In this document: positions 8,044 through 58,063 of the stretch, one piece after another
How the letters are laid out: each line of letters starts with the position of its first letter
Position numbering within the stretch: position 1 is the first letter of the stretch
Virus record (IMG/VR): IMGVR_UViG_3300038608_000026
Location: 1 to 58,822 of that record
Direction: 5' to 3' (one strand)
From: a virus
Lineage: Duplodnaviria; Caudoviricetes
Length of the DNA stretch: 58,822 nt
The notes under the pieces: generated by a model
Seen by the model: the letters and a program-made list of their open reading frames with translations, nothing else
Database searches by the model: none
What the model was told of the DNA's origin: nothing
Program-made: the position numbers and the translations under genes

Positions 8044-8072
8044 ATGATATAATAGTTTTACATTTTTGTCAA
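8044..8072 (-). promoter_or_regulatory. Leftward sigma70 promoter
   Basis: TTGACA-17 bp-TATCAT. Confidence 0.85.
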
Positions 8073-8094
8073 CAGGTAATCCTACTGCTAAAAA

Positions 8095-8116
8095 TATTTT
8101 ACTTTTTTGTAAAATA
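8095..8116. promoter_or_regulatory. Operator-like inverted repeat
   Basis: TATTTTAC-N6-GTAAAATA between the divergent -35 boxes. Confidence 0.45.
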
Positions 8117-8120
8117 ATGT

Positions 8121-8149
8121 TTGACAGAAAAAAAAGACTGTGTTACTAT
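8121..8149 (+). promoter_or_regulatory. Rightward sigma70 promoter
   Basis: TTGACA-17 bp-TACTAT with TG extended -10. Confidence 0.85.
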
Positions 8150-8176
8150 ACGTCATCAAAAGCCCCAAGAGGATTT

Positions 8177-10361: not shown

Positions 10362-11228
10362 ATGATTAATTTATCAGCAGCATTAGAAGATGGACAAACA
10401 AAGAAGGATGAAACAATCGTTGACGCGGAAATATTGCCCCCCGGCCCCGTGCTTTCGCTTGTCGCGGTCAAACCACAATTTACAAAGTACGTCGAACGGG
10501 TTGACGGCATGATTATGGATGCCGCAAAAATCGAAATCGTAGATGAGGGAAGTCTTAAATTTGCAGTCGCCCTGGGCGGAGAGGCAAAGAAGATTGCTAA
10601 AGCGATAGAGGCTAAGCGGAAAGAAGTGACGGCGGACGCCAGCGACTTTGTCGACGCTGTCAATGGCTTCTGCAAAATCTTCGTCGAGAAACTTGTCGCC
10701 AATACGAAAAAGTCAAATGTCGACGCTATTGAAATTGTGTTAAAAAGCAAGATAACGGCTTATCAATCGAGAATAGAGTTGGAACGCCGGATGCAGGAAG
10801 AAGCGGCTAGGAAAGCCGCCGCCGCATTTCAGGCGAAACTTGACGCCGAGGCAGCCGAGGCCAACCGCAAGGCGCGGGAAGAGGCGGAACGTAAAGCAGA
10901 GGAAGAAGCCAGAGCAAAAAAGGCCAGCGCGGAAGAAATTGAAGCGGCCAGGAAAGCGGCTGCGGAAGAGGCGGCAAAACATGAGGTCGTTGCCCCCCAG
11001 GTACCAGACATCATCATTCCGCAGCAGGAAACAGTGACCAGGACGGAGTCGGGAACGTCCAGCCATCAAGTCAAGACGTGGAAGTGCTTTGTAGAGCGCC
11101 CGGAATTGGTTCCGAGAGAATTTTGCGTTCCTGACGGGCGGCTATTGAACAACGCGGTAAAAATGGGCGTCAGGGATATACCTGGATGCAGAATAGAGGA
11201 AGTGAGCGACACAAGATTTCGGACTTAA
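10362..11228 (+). CDS. Coiled-coil protein of the recombination module
   Basis: Long A/E/K/R helix; C-terminal VPREFC.PD...IPG..I. Confidence 0.7.
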   Translation: MINLSAALEDGQTKKDETIVDAEILPPGPVLSLVAVKPQFTKYVERVDGMIMDAAKIEIVDEGSLKFAVALGGEAKKIAKAIEAKRKEVTADASDFVDAVNGFCKIFVEKLVANTKKSNVDAIEIVLKSKITAYQSRIELERRMQEEAARKAAAAFQAKLDAEAAEANRKAREEAERKAEEEARAKKASAEEIEAARKAAAEEAAKHEVVAPQVPDIIIPQQETVTRTESGTSSHQVKTWKCFVERPELVPREFCVPDGRLLNNAVKMGVRDIPGCRIEEVSDTRFRT

Positions 11229-11254
11229 ATAAAATAAAAACAGGAGGAAAACAC

Positions 11255-12391
11255 ATGGGAAACAATTTACCAGCAACACAGAAGGCGGCAAACATCCGCG
11301 CATTGCTCGAACAGAGCAAAAAGCAAATGGCGATGGCATTGCCGAAACATCTAACCGCTGATCGTCTCTTGCGCGTAGCAATGACCAGTATTCAAAAAAA
11401 TCCGAAACTACTGGACTGCACACAGCAAAGTCTTTTGGCTTGCGTTATGACGTGCGCCCAGCTCGGCCTTGAGCCAGATCAATTTCTCGGACAGGCCTAT
11501 TTGGTGCCCTTTAAAGACACAAAAAAAGATATCACAATTTGCACCCTAATCCCAGGTTATCGTGGATATATTGCCCTTGCAAGACGATCCGGCGAGGTTC
11601 AGAGCGTCTCATCGCAAGTAGTGTATTCCAACGACCACTTTATTTTACAGTATGGAATCGAAGAGAAGCTTGAGCACGTCCCGGCTGATGGGGATCGTGG
11701 GGAAGTAAAAGGTGCCTATGTTGTTTTCAGGTATAAGGATGGCTCTTATTCTTTCGACTACATGTCCAAGGGGGACATTGACAAAATACGCAAAAGGTCA
11801 AAAGCAGCAAATGATGGGCCCTGGGTTTCGGATTATGATGAGATGGCCAAGAAAACCGTTATAAAACGCCATGTTAAGTTGGCGCCCCTGTCCGTCGAGT
11901 TCGCCCATGCCGTCGCCCTTGAAGACAGGGCAAACATGGGAGAATCACAGGCTGACCTTCTGGGGATTGATAATGGCGACGTGATTGACGCCGAACCCGG
12001 TGATGATACCGCAACGCTGATAAAAGCTTTTGACGATTCAATTCCGAAAGGAATTAACGAAACAATTCTGAATGAATTTCTGACCCGAACGGCGGATAGC
12101 AACAAAACAACCGTCGATCAGGTGAAACTTGAGGGTGGAAAGGCCACGGAAAAATTCTGGAAAATTTATTCGGCATACGAAAAACAACAAAAAGCAAAAC
12201 AGGAAGAAAAGAAAGAACCTGCTGCCGTTCCCAACCCGAAAACAACTGACTTTGTGCCGGGCCCCGACCCGGCGCAACTAATCTCTGTTGGCCTGGCTCC
12301 GGCTCCGTGTCCTGACGACCCGAAAACAATCTATCTCCGAAAACATTGCGAGGTATGCCCGAAGTTTGTCGGATGTCCGGTTTATTCTTAA
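11255..12391 (+). CDS. recT: RecT-family single-strand annealing protein with Cys-rich C-terminus
   Basis: GLEPD..GQAYLVPF, GYRGYIALARRSG, GPW..DYDEMAKKTVIKR. Confidence 0.92.
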   Translation: MGNNLPATQKAANIRALLEQSKKQMAMALPKHLTADRLLRVAMTSIQKNPKLLDCTQQSLLACVMTCAQLGLEPDQFLGQAYLVPFKDTKKDITICTLIPGYRGYIALARRSGEVQSVSSQVVYSNDHFILQYGIEEKLEHVPADGDRGEVKGAYVVFRYKDGSYSFDYMSKGDIDKIRKRSKAANDGPWVSDYDEMAKKTVIKRHVKLAPLSVEFAHAVALEDRANMGESQADLLGIDNGDVIDAEPGDDTATLIKAFDDSIPKGINETILNEFLTRTADSNKTTVDQVKLEGGKATEKFWKIYSAYEKQQKAKQEEKKEPAAVPNPKTTDFVPGPDPAQLISVGLAPAPCPDDPKTIYLRKHCEVCPKFVGCPVYS

Positions 12392-48911: not shown

Positions 48912-49101
48912 TTAAATTACATTCGGCCTTGCAAATTCTCCGAACAATTCAAAAGATTTTTTATTATACGCAATAGCGGCGAGTTCTGGCGAAGGATAAC
49001 AACCAGCGGATATTTGCTTTCCGTTTATACTTATTGAGTTCGTCAAAATCTTCATCGTCTACTAAAGTTTTCCCGCCATTCGTTAATTCAATCTCTTTCA
49101 T
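48912..49101 (-). pseudogene. Internally deleted HNH-AP2 endonuclease remnant
   Basis: MKEIELTNGGKTLVDDEDFDELNKYK joined out of frame to NGKQISAGCY...AAIAYNKKSFELFGEFARPN; HNH core missing. Confidence 0.85.
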
Positions 49102-49193: not shown

Positions 49194-50192
49194 TTAAGCG
49201 GCCTTAGACAGATTAACATGTAAGCAATGCATCTTTCTGTTCGTGCAAATCAAATTTCCCTGCCATCTCGTATTGGCCGATATCACATCCGGCTGTCCGA
49301 GAACTGACTTGTCAAGCCACACCGGCTGGGTGAAATTGAAATCCTTATGCGCTTTCAGCCCCAAATAGTTGAGATTGAGTGCAAACAGCCAGCCGGCTGG
49401 GACGCCACTATCGGATACAATAGGAGCGCCTTTGTGCATGATGTTTCTCCATCCGGCCTGAACCATGACATCGTTTGTGTATCTTTGCTGCGGATGTAAG
49501 GACAACTCGTAGGCATCTTTCAATAGTGCCGTTGTGCAACAGAAATTGGGCAGTTTACTGTCAACGTCGCCTGCCGCAGGTGCTCTGAAAATGCCCTGCA
49601 TAGTCTCGAAACACATGGTTTCTGCTGTCTCGATGACGTTGTTTATCCAGTTCGGCTCTTCAGACAGGGCGATACATCCGTATTCAACACTTGGCGCACC
49701 CTTGACTCCGGCGGCGCTTACATTGAATAAGTCCAACAAACCGTTTATGCCGTCACCTGTGCCCCTTGCACTCATAATCTGTGCCGCAAGATCAACACGG
49801 GCAGACTCTTTGATGTTTTCCATGTATTGATTGGTTAATCGGATTACCGCTTCCGAGCCGGAGTTCTTAACCTTGTCGTCAAGATTCAACGTATTGGAAC
49901 CGTAGGCGCCACCCCATCCGAATCGGGCCGCAGTCACAAGGTCTTTCTTGGACTGATTAATTACGGTAGTTGCTCCGTAGGTGCCGTGATTTGAATTCGC
50001 ATTAAGCAGCGGAACTTTAATCATAGTTCCGCCGTCAACAGTTTCTTCGGGTTGGACAATAAGACTATCTTCCGCTTTCGCCTTGCCGCAAAGCGCCCAT
50101 AAAAGAGCCGATGCAGTATTAAAAATATCTTCTGGAACAACAGAGTTCCAGTATACTTCGGTTGTTGCATTTAATTGATTTTGTAAAGTCAT
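49194..50192 (-). CDS. Major capsid protein (HK97 fold)
   Basis: Follows the scaffold; DGG..I.VP, G..N...G.P.V.D..P.G.L..LN, GNL...NR..H. Confidence 0.85.
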   Translation of the reverse strand: MTLQNQLNATTEVYWNSVVPEDIFNTASALLWALCGKAKAEDSLIVQPEETVDGGTMIKVPLLNANSNHGTYGATTVINQSKKDLVTAARFGWGGAYGSNTLNLDDKVKNSGSEAVIRLTNQYMENIKESARVDLAAQIMSARGTGDGINGLLDLFNVSAAGVKGAPSVEYGCIALSEEPNWINNVIETAETMCFETMQGIFRAPAAGDVDSKLPNFCCTTALLKDAYELSLHPQQRYTNDVMVQAGWRNIMHKGAPIVSDSGVPAGWLFALNLNYLGLKAHKDFNFTQPVWLDKSVLGQPDVISANTRWQGNLICTNRKMHCLHVNLSKAA

Positions 50193-50218: not shown

Positions 50219-51004
50219 TTACCCGCTTAACTTGGCCAAAGCTTCGGCCATAGCAGCGTCACGCTCCTTGCCGGTTAGTATTGTTTTGTTAGTGGTCTGT
50301 CCGGGACTTTGTCCCTTTATGATCACCGTTCCTGTTTTATCCCTCCCTGCTTGCAGTTTAAGGGCTTCCATCATTTCTGCGTTTTTTTGTTCCAGTGCGG
50401 CTGCTCTTGCTTCCGCATCAGCAGCCTTGATTTCAGCGAACGCCGACATTTTGTCATGCATCCCGGTAGAATCGTTGGCGATAAAATCATTTATTCGCTG
50501 TTGTATTTCCGGGGTGTTGAATGTGGGATTTGCCTTGAGGAATTCTCTCTGCGATGTTTTTATATCGCGTTCCTGTAATTCCTTCTGAAAGAGCTTCCCA
50601 GCCTCACCAAGGACAGTATTTTTAACTTTTTCGGCTGTTAGTTGATTAGATTTTGACATCAACTTAGCAAGTTCGCCCTGATATTTTTCACTCAAAGGAT
50701 CAAGTTTCTCTATCTGAGCGTTTACGTTTGCAATTTCCGAATCGTAATCAATACCTTCCGCCTTTTCCTTTCCGTATCCCGGTTGAGATTTCTCTTTGGT
50801 AAGGGTTTCTTTTAGGGTTTCGGCTAAGGTCTGCGCTTGATTGCGTATTTGCCCCAGTTCGTTCCCCTGCTCTCCAAGTTTCTTTTCCAGATTTGTCCTC
50901 TGCGCCTGTTCTTTGACGAATGCAGCAGCTAACTCTTCCGGGGTCTTAAAACCTGTCCCAGCAATTCCTTTATCTTCGCTTTGATCATTCACATTCTCTT
51001 CCAT
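50219..51004 (-). CDS. Capsid scaffolding protein
   Basis: FKTPEEL...LEKKLGEQGNELG.IR; coiled coil; precedes the capsid gene. Confidence 0.8.
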   Translation of the reverse strand: MEENVNDQSEDKGIAGTGFKTPEELAAAFVKEQAQRTNLEKKLGEQGNELGQIRNQAQTLAETLKETLTKEKSQPGYGKEKAEGIDYDSEIANVNAQIEKLDPLSEKYQGELAKLMSKSNQLTAEKVKNTVLGEAGKLFQKELQERDIKTSQREFLKANPTFNTPEIQQRINDFIANDSTGMHDKMSAFAEIKAADAEARAAALEQKNAEMMEALKLQAGRDKTGTVIIKGQSPGQTTNKTILTGKERDAAMAEALAKLSG

Positions 51005-51085: not shown

Positions 51086-51141
51086 AAAAAAAAGCCCAGA
51101 TTGTACGGACACGTTTGTGTTTGTCGTACAGTCTGGGCTTT
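51086..51141 (-). terminator. Intrinsic terminator downstream of the solitary repeat
   Basis: AAAGCCCAGACTGTACG...CGTACAATCTGGGCTTT followed by T-run. Confidence 0.85.
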
Positions 51142-51180
51142 AGCTACCTTCTTAAAGGACTTAAGTACCCCTTATATCCT

Positions 51181-51216
51181 ATCTACAATAGTAGAAATTT
51201 AATCCGTCCTTTGGAC
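51181..51216 (-). CRISPR. Solitary type V-A (Cas12a) CRISPR repeat
   Basis: GTCCAAAGGACGGATTAAATTTCTACTATTGTAGAT: 36 nt with the canonical 3' AATTTCTAC-loop-GTAGAT handle; single copy; no cas genes seen. Confidence 0.9.
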
Positions 51217-51267
51217 ATATTTTTAGCAGTAAAACATCCTTAAAATAATAACGGTTGACTGAGCATT

Positions 51268-51456
51268 CTATTTACCTTGTTTTAAAATACACACCTTTGT
51301 ATTGTCTTGCATATGCGCTGATCCTATGAATCCTTGTGAGAAGTCTAGGATTAATGTTAATTCAACTCTACCAGAAACTTTATCCAATATCAAGTTTTTT
51401 ATTTTCTCCCTGCAAAAAGAGATTATGGCTTCAATTTTCTGTTCTTTATCGTCCAC
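51268..51456 (-). CDS. Small hypothetical protein (GTG start)
   Basis: SGRVEL...F.QG.I motif; follows the zinc-ribbon gene. Confidence 0.6.
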   Translation of the reverse strand: MDDKEQKIEAIISFCREKIKNLILDKVSGRVELTLILDFSQGFIGSAHMQDNTKVCILKQGK

Positions 51457-55061: not shown

Positions 55062-55769
55062 TTAATTATCAATCACAAAGCAATTAGAAGAGTGCTGATC
55101 CATCCATTCGCATGATAATAAAAGCGTATGGATCAATCCCCCCACAGCTAAAACAGCCGGTTCATCTCTTTTGAACTCTCTTAGTCTGCTCTTCAAAATC
55201 TCTAACCCTGAAAACTTAAAACGCTTTACTTCAATGTCTTTTGATATTAACGACTGCATCGAGCGCGCATAATCATCAAAACATGTCGATTCGTACAGAT
55301 CAACAGTCGGGCTAATTGCCAATTCTTTACCCTTATATCTCTCGTTAAATCTCGCTATTGTGGTTACAAATCTGTCCGGGTCTCCCCACCACGAAGCCAG
55401 CAACGTAGGTTGTAATCCATAGCCATACTTCTCTCGCATAGATATTGTATGATTTAGCAGGGTTGGAATATTCTTGCTCTCAGCTTCGGCAAGTAAGCGA
55501 AAAACAGGCTCTTGTATCGGTTGCGTATCTTTAATTACTGCAACAATTGCTAAATATCCGGGGCGCCCTTCGTCCTTTTCAGAAATTTCAGTTGGCCAGC
55601 CGATACAGCCGTAAACATCGTAATATTGTTCATTATTTTCAATATTCTCATAATAAAATGGGCGCTCAATCATTGGTTTGCCGGTGATCAGGGCGTTATC
55701 AAGTCTGCTTTGGCGTAACTCATACGCATAAGGATGAGTTATTTTTTTAATGATAGAACTCAATGTCAA
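55062..55769 (-). CDS. Hypothetical protein, possible RNase H-like fold
   Basis: GCIGWP...PGYLAIVAV beta-strand pattern; coupled to terL. Confidence 0.5.
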   Translation of the reverse strand: MTLSSIIKKITHPYAYELRQSRLDNALITGKPMIERPFYYENIENNEQYYDVYGCIGWPTEISEKDEGRPGYLAIVAVIKDTQPIQEPVFRLLAEAESKNIPTLLNHTISMREKYGYGLQPTLLASWWGDPDRFVTTIARFNERYKGKELAISPTVDLYESTCFDDYARSMQSLISKDIEVKRFKFSGLEILKSRLREFKRDEPAVLAVGGLIHTLLLSCEWMDQHSSNCFVIDN

Positions 55770-58063
55770 TCCTCAAATACACTATCGCTAAAAAAGCTCT
55801 CGCCGATCAGGTCGGTTATTGCCCAGACCAGCGCATCTAAACGGTTTGGCGATTTATCTCCTGGAAGCCACAAGCAGAGCTCATCTTCCAATGCCGGAAA
55901 ATTTCCGACGTGATGGACAAGATTCTTCTCATACTTTGCGCTTACCGGCTCGGCGCGCACATTTTTACCGCGCGCGGCGTGAACGAGTTTAACGGGAACA
56001 TCTTTATCAACTTGTTTAATTGTAATGGCCACCATCTCACCACCTTGGTTTTTTTCGGCAACAATCAGATTAGCTTTGTGTTTGTAATAGGCATCAACAG
56101 CAGCTTGTGCCCAGGACAGCGGGGAACCATTCAGCGTGTCATCTTCCAGGACGTACACCTGATTAGCAAGACTGCCCGCAACGATGACACCGGCTGCGTC
56201 CCCTGTGCCTTCCGCGGAGGTCGTAGGGTCGATGGCAACAACAATCTTGGTTAATTCAGGAGCCTGTATAACCCTGTTTTTTTCAATGCTGTCACGTGTC
56301 CACAGCGCGCCCGGTGCTTGATCTATGTCCTCAGCAAGGATTTCCATGCGGTAAGCCAGGCTGCTCATGTCAGAAGTAATTTCTGCCAGCGCGTCTTGGC
56401 TTATGTACGGATTGTCCATCGAGGAAAAGTGAAATGTCGCCCAGCGTCCGGGGTTTGATTTTTCCAGTAACGCCGCTTTTTTAAAAAGTTTTGCGGCATG
56501 TTGAGGGTCGTTGGCTTTTGAAACACTGCGGGAATGCAAAGAGGGCGGCGTATAAATAAAAACTGCGTCTCCGTCGTTGTCCAGCAGCATTGGTGCACCG
56601 ACAACCGCCCAGGCATCCTCGTTGATGAGTTGGTACTCGTCAAAAATAAGAAGACTGCAATAATCGCCACGTAGCGTATCCGCATTCCAGCAGGTTTTTG
56701 CTCTCAATCTTTGCTCTGTGCCTTTTAACTCAATAATATGTTCAGTCTCATTTTTGTAAAAAATCTTGTTTCGGGTCAGCTCATCGGTTGCGTTTGTAAC
56801 CGATGTCCAAAATCTGCCAATTTGCTCTGAGGTTGGAGCTGCATACAGGACTCTGCGGCCTTTTAGAAATTCTTGTATGGCAAAAATAGCTATCCCCACG
56901 GTGTTATGTGTCGCAATGAAATTATCCGTAAGGTAAAGTCCAGCCGGATCAGATATCTTTATACACTGCGCGGCTTCTTCTCTAACTTTCTCAACTTTAT
57001 GTATGTATCTTTTGACCGGCCAAGCTCTCCGTTTCGCTTTTTGTTTTTTGGCCGGGAGGGTAAATAAACATGAGGCATCCGGGAATAATATGCTTTGTCG
57101 GTAAACATCTCTCGCTATAACTTTAACCCCTTTGTATTTATAAGAATTTTTCTTTACACGAAGAGTGCATAATCCACCCATAGATTGTATTACCTCTGCG
57201 ACATCTTTCGCAAGTCTTTCTGAAGTTTGTTCTAGCCTCGGCTGGCCATAATAATCTACAGACCCGTCTGTATCTAATATCCCCTGGATAATTCCCATCC
57301 TTACCTCTATAGAGTTATATTTATATATATCGGGAATATATTTTTCGTAACTGTACTTACCCCATAAATTAAGCTTTTTTAGTGCTCTAATGATTGGATT
57401 CTTGTAGACACCCATACCAACACTTAAAACATAATCATGTTTGTCGCCATCTCGCCGCATAGTCATTCCTTGCGGCAATCTTTTACTCACTTGCTCACGG
57501 ATATATGGATCATATGCAGACACCATCACTGATTCATGCAACATGCTGCCATCTCCAATCAAAACCCCAAGCAAATATGGATCTATTGGCACATCTTGAG
57601 ACATAAACCGCACGGGGCTTGTGGATGGAATGGTTGGCCTCCTTTTAGTGCCATGACCCACTTGTGTAATGGTCTTCATTTTTGATAATTGTTCAGTCGT
57701 AACAACCCTGGTTCTCTCCTTCCAAACACTATCTGTTCGCCTTTCTTTTATCTCCCAAAGATGGTCGAATGTGCTTTCAGCGTATTCACCGCCCCCAAAC
57801 GATACACGATAAATATCCTGTATCCCTTGCGGATAGACTCCTTCAACTCTTGCCACGCCACCAGCCGGTGTTAGGACTTTATCTCCGATTTTGATATCCG
57901 CCATAATTTTATACCCCGTAGGAGTATATATTTTGGCCGTTAGCGGCTGTGCTTTTCCCGAGCGTCTCCCCGCCCTAATCACCTTTCTTTTTGCGGCCGA
58001 CTGCATAAAATCCAGTTGTTTTGCGTGCGGCTTCGGAAGTTTTACTGTGTATTTTTTAGTCAT
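55766..58063 (-). CDS. terL: Terminase large subunit (intein-containing)
   Basis: AGRRSGK/T Walker A split by the intein, LRG...FDE Walker B, DNPYI, VVAIDP, EKNQGG, SPNRLDALVWA. Confidence 0.95.
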   Translation of the reverse strand: MTKKYTVKLPKPHAKQLDFMQSAAKRKVIRAGRRSGKAQPLTAKIYTPTGYKIMADIKIGDKVLTPAGGVARVEGVYPQGIQDIYRVSFGGGEYAESTFDHLWEIKERRTDSVWKERTRVVTTEQLSKMKTITQVGHGTKRRPTIPSTSPVRFMSQDVPIDPYLLGVLIGDGSMLHESVMVSAYDPYIREQVSKRLPQGMTMRRDGDKHDYVLSVGMGVYKNPIIRALKKLNLWGKYSYEKYIPDIYKYNSIEVRMGIIQGILDTDGSVDYYGQPRLEQTSERLAKDVAEVIQSMGGLCTLRVKKNSYKYKGVKVIARDVYRQSILFPDASCLFTLPAKKQKAKRRAWPVKRYIHKVEKVREEAAQCIKISDPAGLYLTDNFIATHNTVGIAIFAIQEFLKGRRVLYAAPTSEQIGRFWTSVTNATDELTRNKIFYKNETEHIIELKGTEQRLRAKTCWNADTLRGDYCSLLIFDEYQLINEDAWAVVGAPMLLDNDGDAVFIYTPPSLHSRSVSKANDPQHAAKLFKKAALLEKSNPGRWATFHFSSMDNPYISQDALAEITSDMSSLAYRMEILAEDIDQAPGALWTRDSIEKNRVIQAPELTKIVVAIDPTTSAEGTGDAAGVIVAGSLANQVYVLEDDTLNGSPLSWAQAAVDAYYKHKANLIVAEKNQGGEMVAITIKQVDKDVPVKLVHAARGKNVRAEPVSAKYEKNLVHHVGNFPALEDELCLWLPGDKSPNRLDALVWAITDLIGESFFSDSVFED
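56903..57952 (-). mobile_element. Class 3 intein with LAGLIDADG homing endonuclease (350 aa)
   Basis: Starts AQPL, ends ATHN with +1 Thr; block B HLW, block F Cys, block G Thr; LLGVLIGDG and IQGILDTDG motifs. Confidence 0.9.

Follow-up and report, generated by a model that had tools for sequence, protein, structure and literature searches.

A solitary type V-A repeat lies in the phage head operon

The window, i.e. the whole stretch of 58,822 nt that was analysed (IMGVR_UViG_3300038608_000026), is a record classed as a virus, with a CheckV completeness of 95%. On its minus strand, a complete type V-A repeat of 36 nt is found at 51181..51216, and the 3' 19 nt of this repeat constitute a Cas12a handle that folds correctly. 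Adjoining the repeat in guide position is a native phage protospacer (51153..51180, minus strand), from which the mature guide would span about 51180-51158, followed by a terminator-like hairpin and T-run (51086..51141, minus strand). An earlier note had pointed out this combination of repeat, guide-length stretch and terminator, and its letters and minus-strand positions proved to be as quoted. Its statement that only one copy is present also holds: the 17-nt handle pattern has a single exact match in the window, together with two matches carrying two mismatches, where the shuffle control predicts 0.37 matches at up to 2 mismatches. No cas genes, again as the note had said, were found among the window proteins scanned (27 distinct ORFs, a subset of the window's ORFs). 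The repeat is therefore solitary, being present once, with no partner repeat within 100 bp and no cas hits in the scanned ORFs. The element gave no Rfam match at gathering score, and the exact repeat had 0 matches elsewhere in viral contigs.

Upstream of the repeat on the same strand lie a 19-nt inserted piece (51217..51235), which is probably the 3' tail of a preceding host spacer, a 5-nt copy of the guide's first five bases at the left junction (51236..51240), representing microhomology or a target duplication, and the motif TTTA (51241..51244), which, where the insertion is absent, directly precedes the target as its presumed PAM and here stands 60 bp away from it. The element sits between an 89-aa ORF and a probable scaffold gene (50219..51004, minus strand), in the operon that also contains the genes for terminase, portal and major head protein; the element's other neighbours are a zinc-ribbon gene and small ORFs of unknown function. 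The scaffold gene has no family hit and is named by its position, downstream of the element and before the major head gene (49194-50192). A sigma-70-like promoter candidate lies 150 nt upstream (51365..51393, minus strand), but it is a consensus match from a scan at chance level (2 found versus 1.5 expected).

As a candidate recombination agent, the phage encodes a RecT-family annealing protein (11186..12391, plus strand; PF03837, E 1e-53). No integrase or serine recombinase was found in the 95% complete record, although relatives are located within genomes of Smithellaceae. Other small indels occur near the element in the family. A decayed endonuclease-like remnant, read from the sequence, follows the major head gene (48950-49100, minus strand); a 41-bp part of this remnant is missing from three relatives, and in three about 750 bp of the next gene are skipped. 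The gene for the large terminase subunit (55766-58063) contains an inserted region around which the profile matches split, and which resembles an intein in its motifs.

The repeat is identical to that of a Smithella array

A search of the genome collection with a 22-nt part of the repeat returned two stretches, one being the Smithella sp. SCADC array and the other a partial match by chance. All 40/40 repeats of the SCADC array equal the phage copy at 36/36 positions, so that an array of the kind which the earlier note had proposed to look for exists, and it adjoins cas12a. A match in Prolixibacteraceae (L002) is partial, with a broken handle, and was dismissed as chance. The SCADC spacers are 26-32 nt long, giving repeat-spacer units of 62-68 nt. 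The locus encodes a 1250-aa Cas12a with the five Cas12a Pfam domains REC1, REC2, PI, RuvC and Nuc, and a second protein of 1064 aa, whose only solved relatives at E < 0.001 are Cas12a3 (987 aa searched). From ORF order and their sequences, we take three further genes to be cas4, cas1 and cas2. The part of 10.1101/192799 that covers this locus also names these three and describes the 1064-aa protein as active at TTTA sites. Cas12a3 is RNA-triggered and cuts tRNA tails, according to part of the text of PMC12851939. With such an effector at the cognate locus, one RNA might be loaded by two nucleases of very different kinds.

The phage head protein was matched in 6/116 Smithellaceae genomes, in 4/116 at about 60% capsid identity and with syntenic structural genes. 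From the repeat identity, the Cas12a locus and these head-gene matches, we conclude that a Smithella carrying this V-A system is the most likely host, and the suggestion that the phage borrows host Cas12a has gained a concrete counterpart: the repeat is the host's type V-A repeat, and a host locus with Cas12a exists. The spacers of SCADC and of a second host genome, G004, matched the window and its relatives with 5-7 mismatches at best and so were not used as host evidence. Two Smithella loci (L069:5017-11970 and L081:1903-9315) each hold a 1250-aa gene, a second large gene (1064 and 1217 aa, respectively) and one array; their repeats differ in the 5' half while their leaders are alike, and in SCADC the two large genes are Cas12a and the Cas12a3-like protein. 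Lone or paired V-A repeats also occur in two other Smithellaceae genomes (L082 near 4022, L083 near 4250).

Filled and empty alleles

What the earlier note could not see is that the repeat is part of a 60-bp insertion, composed of the 5-nt duplication, the 19-nt piece and the 36-nt repeat, which is missing from close relatives. Four relatives at 98-99% capsid identity lack the repeat. A search with the guide sequence, in a collection from which records very close to that of the window may be missing, returned 5 viral and 2 metagenome records, some of which may share a sample, and 7/7 are empty, with TTTA directly before the guide in each. Absence from relatives, the outcome that the note had set against its own reading, is thus what the compared locus shows. 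The guide matches the repeat-less siblings behind TTTA over 24/24 or 21/21 positions. TTTV, the usual PAM of the Cas12a family and the presumed one here, occurs at 2.2% of positions in the genome, which is the chance of finding it at a random junction. In a part of 10.1101/2024.10.29.618823, TTTA is named as V-A PAM. The size of the insertion, 60 bp, compares with host units of 62-68.

In the filled allele, the PAM is followed by the first 5 guide bases only (9/23 overall), and the end of the repeat precedes the true target; a PAM with an 8-nt guide seed was not found anywhere in the carrier genome. The earlier statement that the guide has no PAM-flanked self-target is therefore correct for this genome and fails for the siblings, which carry TTTA and a full match. 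Among the roles the note had listed, a guide against a competitor is the one that fits, given this full match in siblings. The idea of a purpose-built cassette does not survive the comparison, as the repeat is missing from close relatives in 7/7 records and the guide and terminator are phage DNA conserved without it.

Four of 24 listed sequencing runs (X1, X3, X5 and X18) were examined as assembled contigs. X1 and X3, which may be the source samples, hold the filled allele in one contig each, at depths of 381 and 200, with no empty branch and no other letters. In X5, a 2025 run from another study, a filled contig of 134 nt (depth 5.3) runs through the entire insertion; its guide side comprises 30 letters, one fewer than our bridging rule demands. 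X5 also contains a contig without the 60 bp, with a joint of 5 (depth 7; its shorter side has 25 letters), and a repeat-spacer-repeat piece at depth 7.7, whose spacer is unmatched in the window when up to 3 mismatches are allowed. X18, a possible RNA run that looked like DNA, left the repeat region uncovered and was uninformative. Given that X5 contains the filled allele, the empty allele and an array piece, and X1 and X3 the filled allele, the insertion is genuinely polymorphic in a phage population exposed to this array. All 7/7 other records lack the filled allele, so there has been no wide sweep.

These contigs also bear on whether phage and host array reads were fused during assembly or amplification. 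The 36-nt repeat is longer than the 31-letter word, X5 contains an array piece as well, and its filled contig is thin on the guide side, all of which a chimera would accommodate. The left junction between the phage flank and the 19-nt piece shares no long word, however, and so must be present in the reads; moreover, the junction recurs in three samples from two studies and years, at depths up to 381 and with no empty branch in two of them. We regard a chimera as extremely improbable.

The guide stretch and terminator are conserved in relatives lacking the repeat

In 12/17 relative loci, the guide stretch can be aligned to a conserved motif that precedes the scaffold gene, and the handle is present in 0/17; several of these loci come from one genome, and at least one lacks the region. 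The terminator hairpin is conserved in 8 aligned relatives, with two-sided changes in 9/18 pairs, and this covariation is seen in relatives without the repeat. The phage copy of the repeat carries no mutation. Judged from this conservation, the guide and the terminator are old phage DNA. Because the motif and the hairpin are conserved in handle-less relatives and the repeat is unmutated, we consider the repeat to have been gained recently. A tree of 8 rows fails to separate the close relatives, and the polarity therefore rests on outgroups; by phylogeny alone, loss in the siblings via the 5-nt direct repeat would be possible in place of gain. The guide itself folds into a hairpin of -3.0 kcal/mol; 8/38 host spacers fold as strongly and 30/38 more weakly.

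The segment 51010-51180 (minus strand) has the appearance of a structured scaffold leader conserved throughout the family, made up of the motif, a small hairpin, the covarying terminator hairpin and a further conserved stretch. It has no Rfam match, and we take its structure to resemble an antitermination signal. The earlier note had suggested that host Cas12a might cleave the late mRNA at the repeat and thereby tune scaffold and capsid expression. The repeat does share the sense strand with the head operon and precedes this leader, and an unrelated phage (L073) has a handle at the same operon position. Yet such a switch for head genes is very unlikely, because phages 98-99% identical run the same operon without the repeat; the hairpin also predates the repeat, and cleavage would be better read as a cost or side effect.

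Origin of the 19-nt piece

The last 15 nt of the 19-nt piece, anchored at the repeat, equal window positions 8083-8097 (plus strand). A TTTG motif sits 29 nt upstream of the end of this match, a typical spacer length, which delimits a PAM with a 29-nt candidate protospacer at 8065..8097 (plus strand) in the divergent early control region; the corresponding stretch of a sister phage is the likely source of the spacer tail. In controls, 2/20000 shuffles and 9/11402 unrelated words of equal G+C reached 15 nt, and 0/38 host spacers exceeded 12 nt against this genome. Over 24 nt the match is 19/24, and from this imperfect agreement we infer that the piece was probably captured as a spacer from a sister phage. 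No sister alleles of the early control region that explain the remaining bases were found in the records, which are fragments. The region itself (8054-8150) contains repeated operator-like inverted motifs and, by eye, a strong sigma-70-like promoter.

Other sources were considered for the 19-nt piece. The host leader was rejected, as the leader ends of SCADC and G004 differ from it, and 16 viral matches were attributed to chance, their flanks being unmatched. The 19-nt tail was found in 0/116 Smithellaceae genomes, and neither the tail nor a spacer equal to the guide was found in the SCADC genome. A metagenome scan for an array with the guide as spacer gave 2 matches, both of them empty phage alleles. 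By its composition, the insertion looks like a spacer tail plus repeat from an array with two adjacent spacers against this phage lineage.

The missing donor array is what one would expect if the element were a functionless array fragment, joined by chance through short-homology repair and drifting at local high frequency. The rarity of the filled allele among public records, the hairpin formed by the guide and the other small indels nearby in the family would agree with such a passenger. Against it, the junction falls exactly between the PAM and a guide-length native stretch, and the filled allele is the sole one at depths of 381 and 200 in two samples and returns in the 2025 run from another study. 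Overall, we consider neutrality quite unlikely.

Type V-A handles in other viruses

A scan of viral contigs for V-A handles gave at least 116 stretches, of which 80, together with two more and the window, were reduced to 61 distinct units. Each was scored for the presence, 20-60 nt upstream, of TTTV plus a copy of the guide's first bases. A copy of at least 5 nt was present in 3/61 units (5 nt in the window, 8 in L114 and 11 in L103), and in the swapped-guide control 6/3660 reached at least 5 nt and none at least 8. The signature of PAM and duplication is thus missing from most viral handles. In L103 (1159-1203, minus strand), TTTG is followed by an 11-nt copy of the guide start, 14 nt, a V-A handle and the guide. 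This is the layout of the window, and a self-repressing guide is an equally good reading of it; a search for its empty allele in GenBank phages gave no match. L114 was rejected as a parallel, being a tandem, degenerate mini-array.

Several of these loci deserve mention in their own right. In L114 (9650-9835), a prophage resembling Moraxella phages, a promoter-like stretch behind TTTC is followed by a repeat, a diverged copy of that stretch as spacer, and then a second repeat and handle fragments, an order in which self-repression is possible. In L104 (near 2613 and 3995), the sequence behind a V-A handle matches its own virus elsewhere at 18/20 positions, without a PAM. A V-A handle directly behind a viral tRNA-Thr gene (L071:14642-14739) is of note as Cas12a3 cuts tRNA tails. 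A full-length solitary V-A repeat occurs in another virus (L072:6624-6659), and the L073 handle (1360-1382) lies between a small zinc-finger gene and a probable scaffold gene. When the guides of the 82 other viral handle records were compared with each other, no PAM-flanked target was found.

Comparison with known repeat-derived elements

The element resembles the solitary repeat units (SRUs) and RNA anti-CRISPRs (Racrs) described in part of the text of PMC10651486, which likewise consist of one host-like repeat in a phage without cas genes and include V-A examples; the match to the host repeat is full-length (36/36), as required of an SRU. Relative to that description, the present repeat is unmutated and polymorphic, its empty site is visible, and the stretch behind it is matched perfectly by a PAM-flanked target in siblings. 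The repeat could be kept as a decoy that titrates Cas12a and the Cas12a3-like effector, the site of insertion being incidental. Type V-A Racrs inhibit Cas12a in the same part of PMC10651486, the late operon would be strongly expressed, a self-folding guide suits an inert decoy, and solitary V-A handles are common in viruses, one of them, in L073, at the same operon position. A decoy leaves unexplained the TTTV exactly at the junction, the spacer-like tail and the unit-sized insertion, however, and the repeat is not conserved in siblings. Late expression would also be ill-timed against DNA cleavage at entry, and neither the promoter scan, itself at chance level, nor the neighbouring genes scanned pointed to an own promoter or acr gene beside the element. 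We thus hold a decoy as the primary role to be unlikely, and a decoy effect would be possible as a side effect.

CracrVA1, as presented in part of 10.1101/2024.10.29.618823, shares the outward layout of a single V-A repeat, guide and intrinsic terminator, from which the same processing would follow. A cas-repressing RNA that redirects Cas12a to the host cas promoter is therefore a natural thought, and the earlier note had named a cas12a promoter among the possible targets. In that account, Cracr guides share at least 9-10 PAM-proximal bases with the cas promoter, whereas the longest PAM-proximal match of the present guide upstream of cas12a is 2 nt in SCADC and 3 nt in G004, and the guide is the phage's own DNA. 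Measured against the bar of at least 9 PAM-proximal bases to a cas promoter or a CreR guide, the element falls well short. Two PAM + 10-nt seed matches in the two host genomes lie inside unrelated coding genes and were discarded, and no handle-like CreR was found upstream of cas12a at the SCADC and G004 loci. For these two loci a Cracr is largely refuted, leaving it a very remote prospect.

Viral mini-arrays (PMC6858448, PMC7099407, including Faure 2019), as treated in parts of these texts, likewise borrow host Cas proteins, target a close relative at a site near the array and spare the carrier from self-targeting, and a recombinational origin has been proposed for them. The present element has one repeat where a mini-array has two, of which one may be partial, and it lacks a spacer of its own; the target was converted into the guide where it stood, and the carrier would be protected by displacement of the PAM where those arrays rely on target mutation. 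By sequence, the sibling match behind TTTA in 7/7 records, with the carrier spared, corresponds to mini-array targeting. The element qualifies as an SRU, is neither a Cracr nor a two-repeat mini-array, and would nevertheless work like a mini-array.

Two further systems are similar in part. In the TnpB omega-RNA and donor joint of IS200/IS605 elements (10.1101/2023.03.14.532601, in part), a right-end scaffold uses the flank as guide, a motif lies at the left flank, and loss of the element recreates motif and target. The empty site here has the same form, with a motif directly abutting the flank that serves as guide. Unlike TnpB elements, the insertion of only 60 bp has no transposase, no nuclease gene and no IS ends, occupies one site with a 5-nt duplication and needs host Cas12a, which limits the likeness to how it would work. 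Crossover between spacer and protospacer was described by Varble 2019, as cited in parts of PMC8616872 and PMC7099407; there the products are transducing particles or array insertions, and here a viable phage allele keeps one repeat unit.

A proposed origin and function

With a probability of roughly two in three, we interpret the element as a scar left recently when the phage recombined with a type V-A array of Smithella, an event by which a protospacer escaped and a guide arose as by-product. Initially, the host would have acquired a spacer from the PAM-flanked stretch 51180-51153, beside another spacer against the same lineage. The phage protospacer would then have paired with that spacer, probably aided by RecT, such that the repeat upstream of it was copied together with the end of the spacer before, and the ends rejoined at the 5-nt microhomology. 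Recombination with host arrays has been put forward as the source of leaderless phage mini-arrays (PMC6858448, PMC7099407, in parts of both). In the resulting sequence the repeat separates the PAM from the target, and Cas12a should no longer recognise this target, because the PAM now faces five seed bases and the repeat end stands before it. The conserved motif under the target would stay intact. Escape is likely to have been the first benefit. Escape from Cas12a through microhomology deletions is reported in part of PMC10132644; an insertion preserves the conserved motif, which may explain why it was chosen over a deletion.

The scar could then have acquired a second activity. A late transcript running through the repeat, guide and terminator would be turned into a crRNA by host Cas12a, which would cut the repeat-less siblings. 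According to parts of 10.1101/2024.10.29.618823, Cas12a trims a repeat with guide and terminator to 19+21 nt, and CracrVA1, when fully matched, stops repressing and appears to cut. That the element yields a crRNA matching siblings behind TTTA, and so excludes them, is in our estimate possible, at somewhat less than even odds. Homing, in which repair of a cut sibling from the filled genome copies the element across, is more doubtful. Equally tentative is the fuller picture of a 60-bp, protein-free homing element, in which the captured repeat shields the carrier, the flank serves as guide, host Cas12a cuts and RecT copies; it would include the cutting of revertants made by the 5-nt direct repeat.

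A limited literature check, covering titles, abstract openings and excerpts of text, found no description of a repeat inserted between PAM and protospacer, or of homing by such a unit; published tables of SRUs, Racrs and Cracrs may list this element or junctions like it. In the part of PMC6858448 that addresses these matters, the origin of phage single repeats, and why mini-array spacers match sites beside the array, are called unclear. With filled and empty alleles and readable junctions at hand, the origin of phage solitary repeats becomes directly testable. The locus points to an escape route that needs neither seed mutation nor deletion, in which the host's own repeat is pasted before the target and the regulatory motif is kept. 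If the guide works, escape and attack on siblings would come in one 60-bp step. If the homing reading is true, TnpB-style selfish spread would have been rebuilt from a host repeat; a TnpB gene drive in plasmids is the subject of a preprint. It would then also suggest how phage solitary repeats, mini-arrays and self-repressing guides arise in general.
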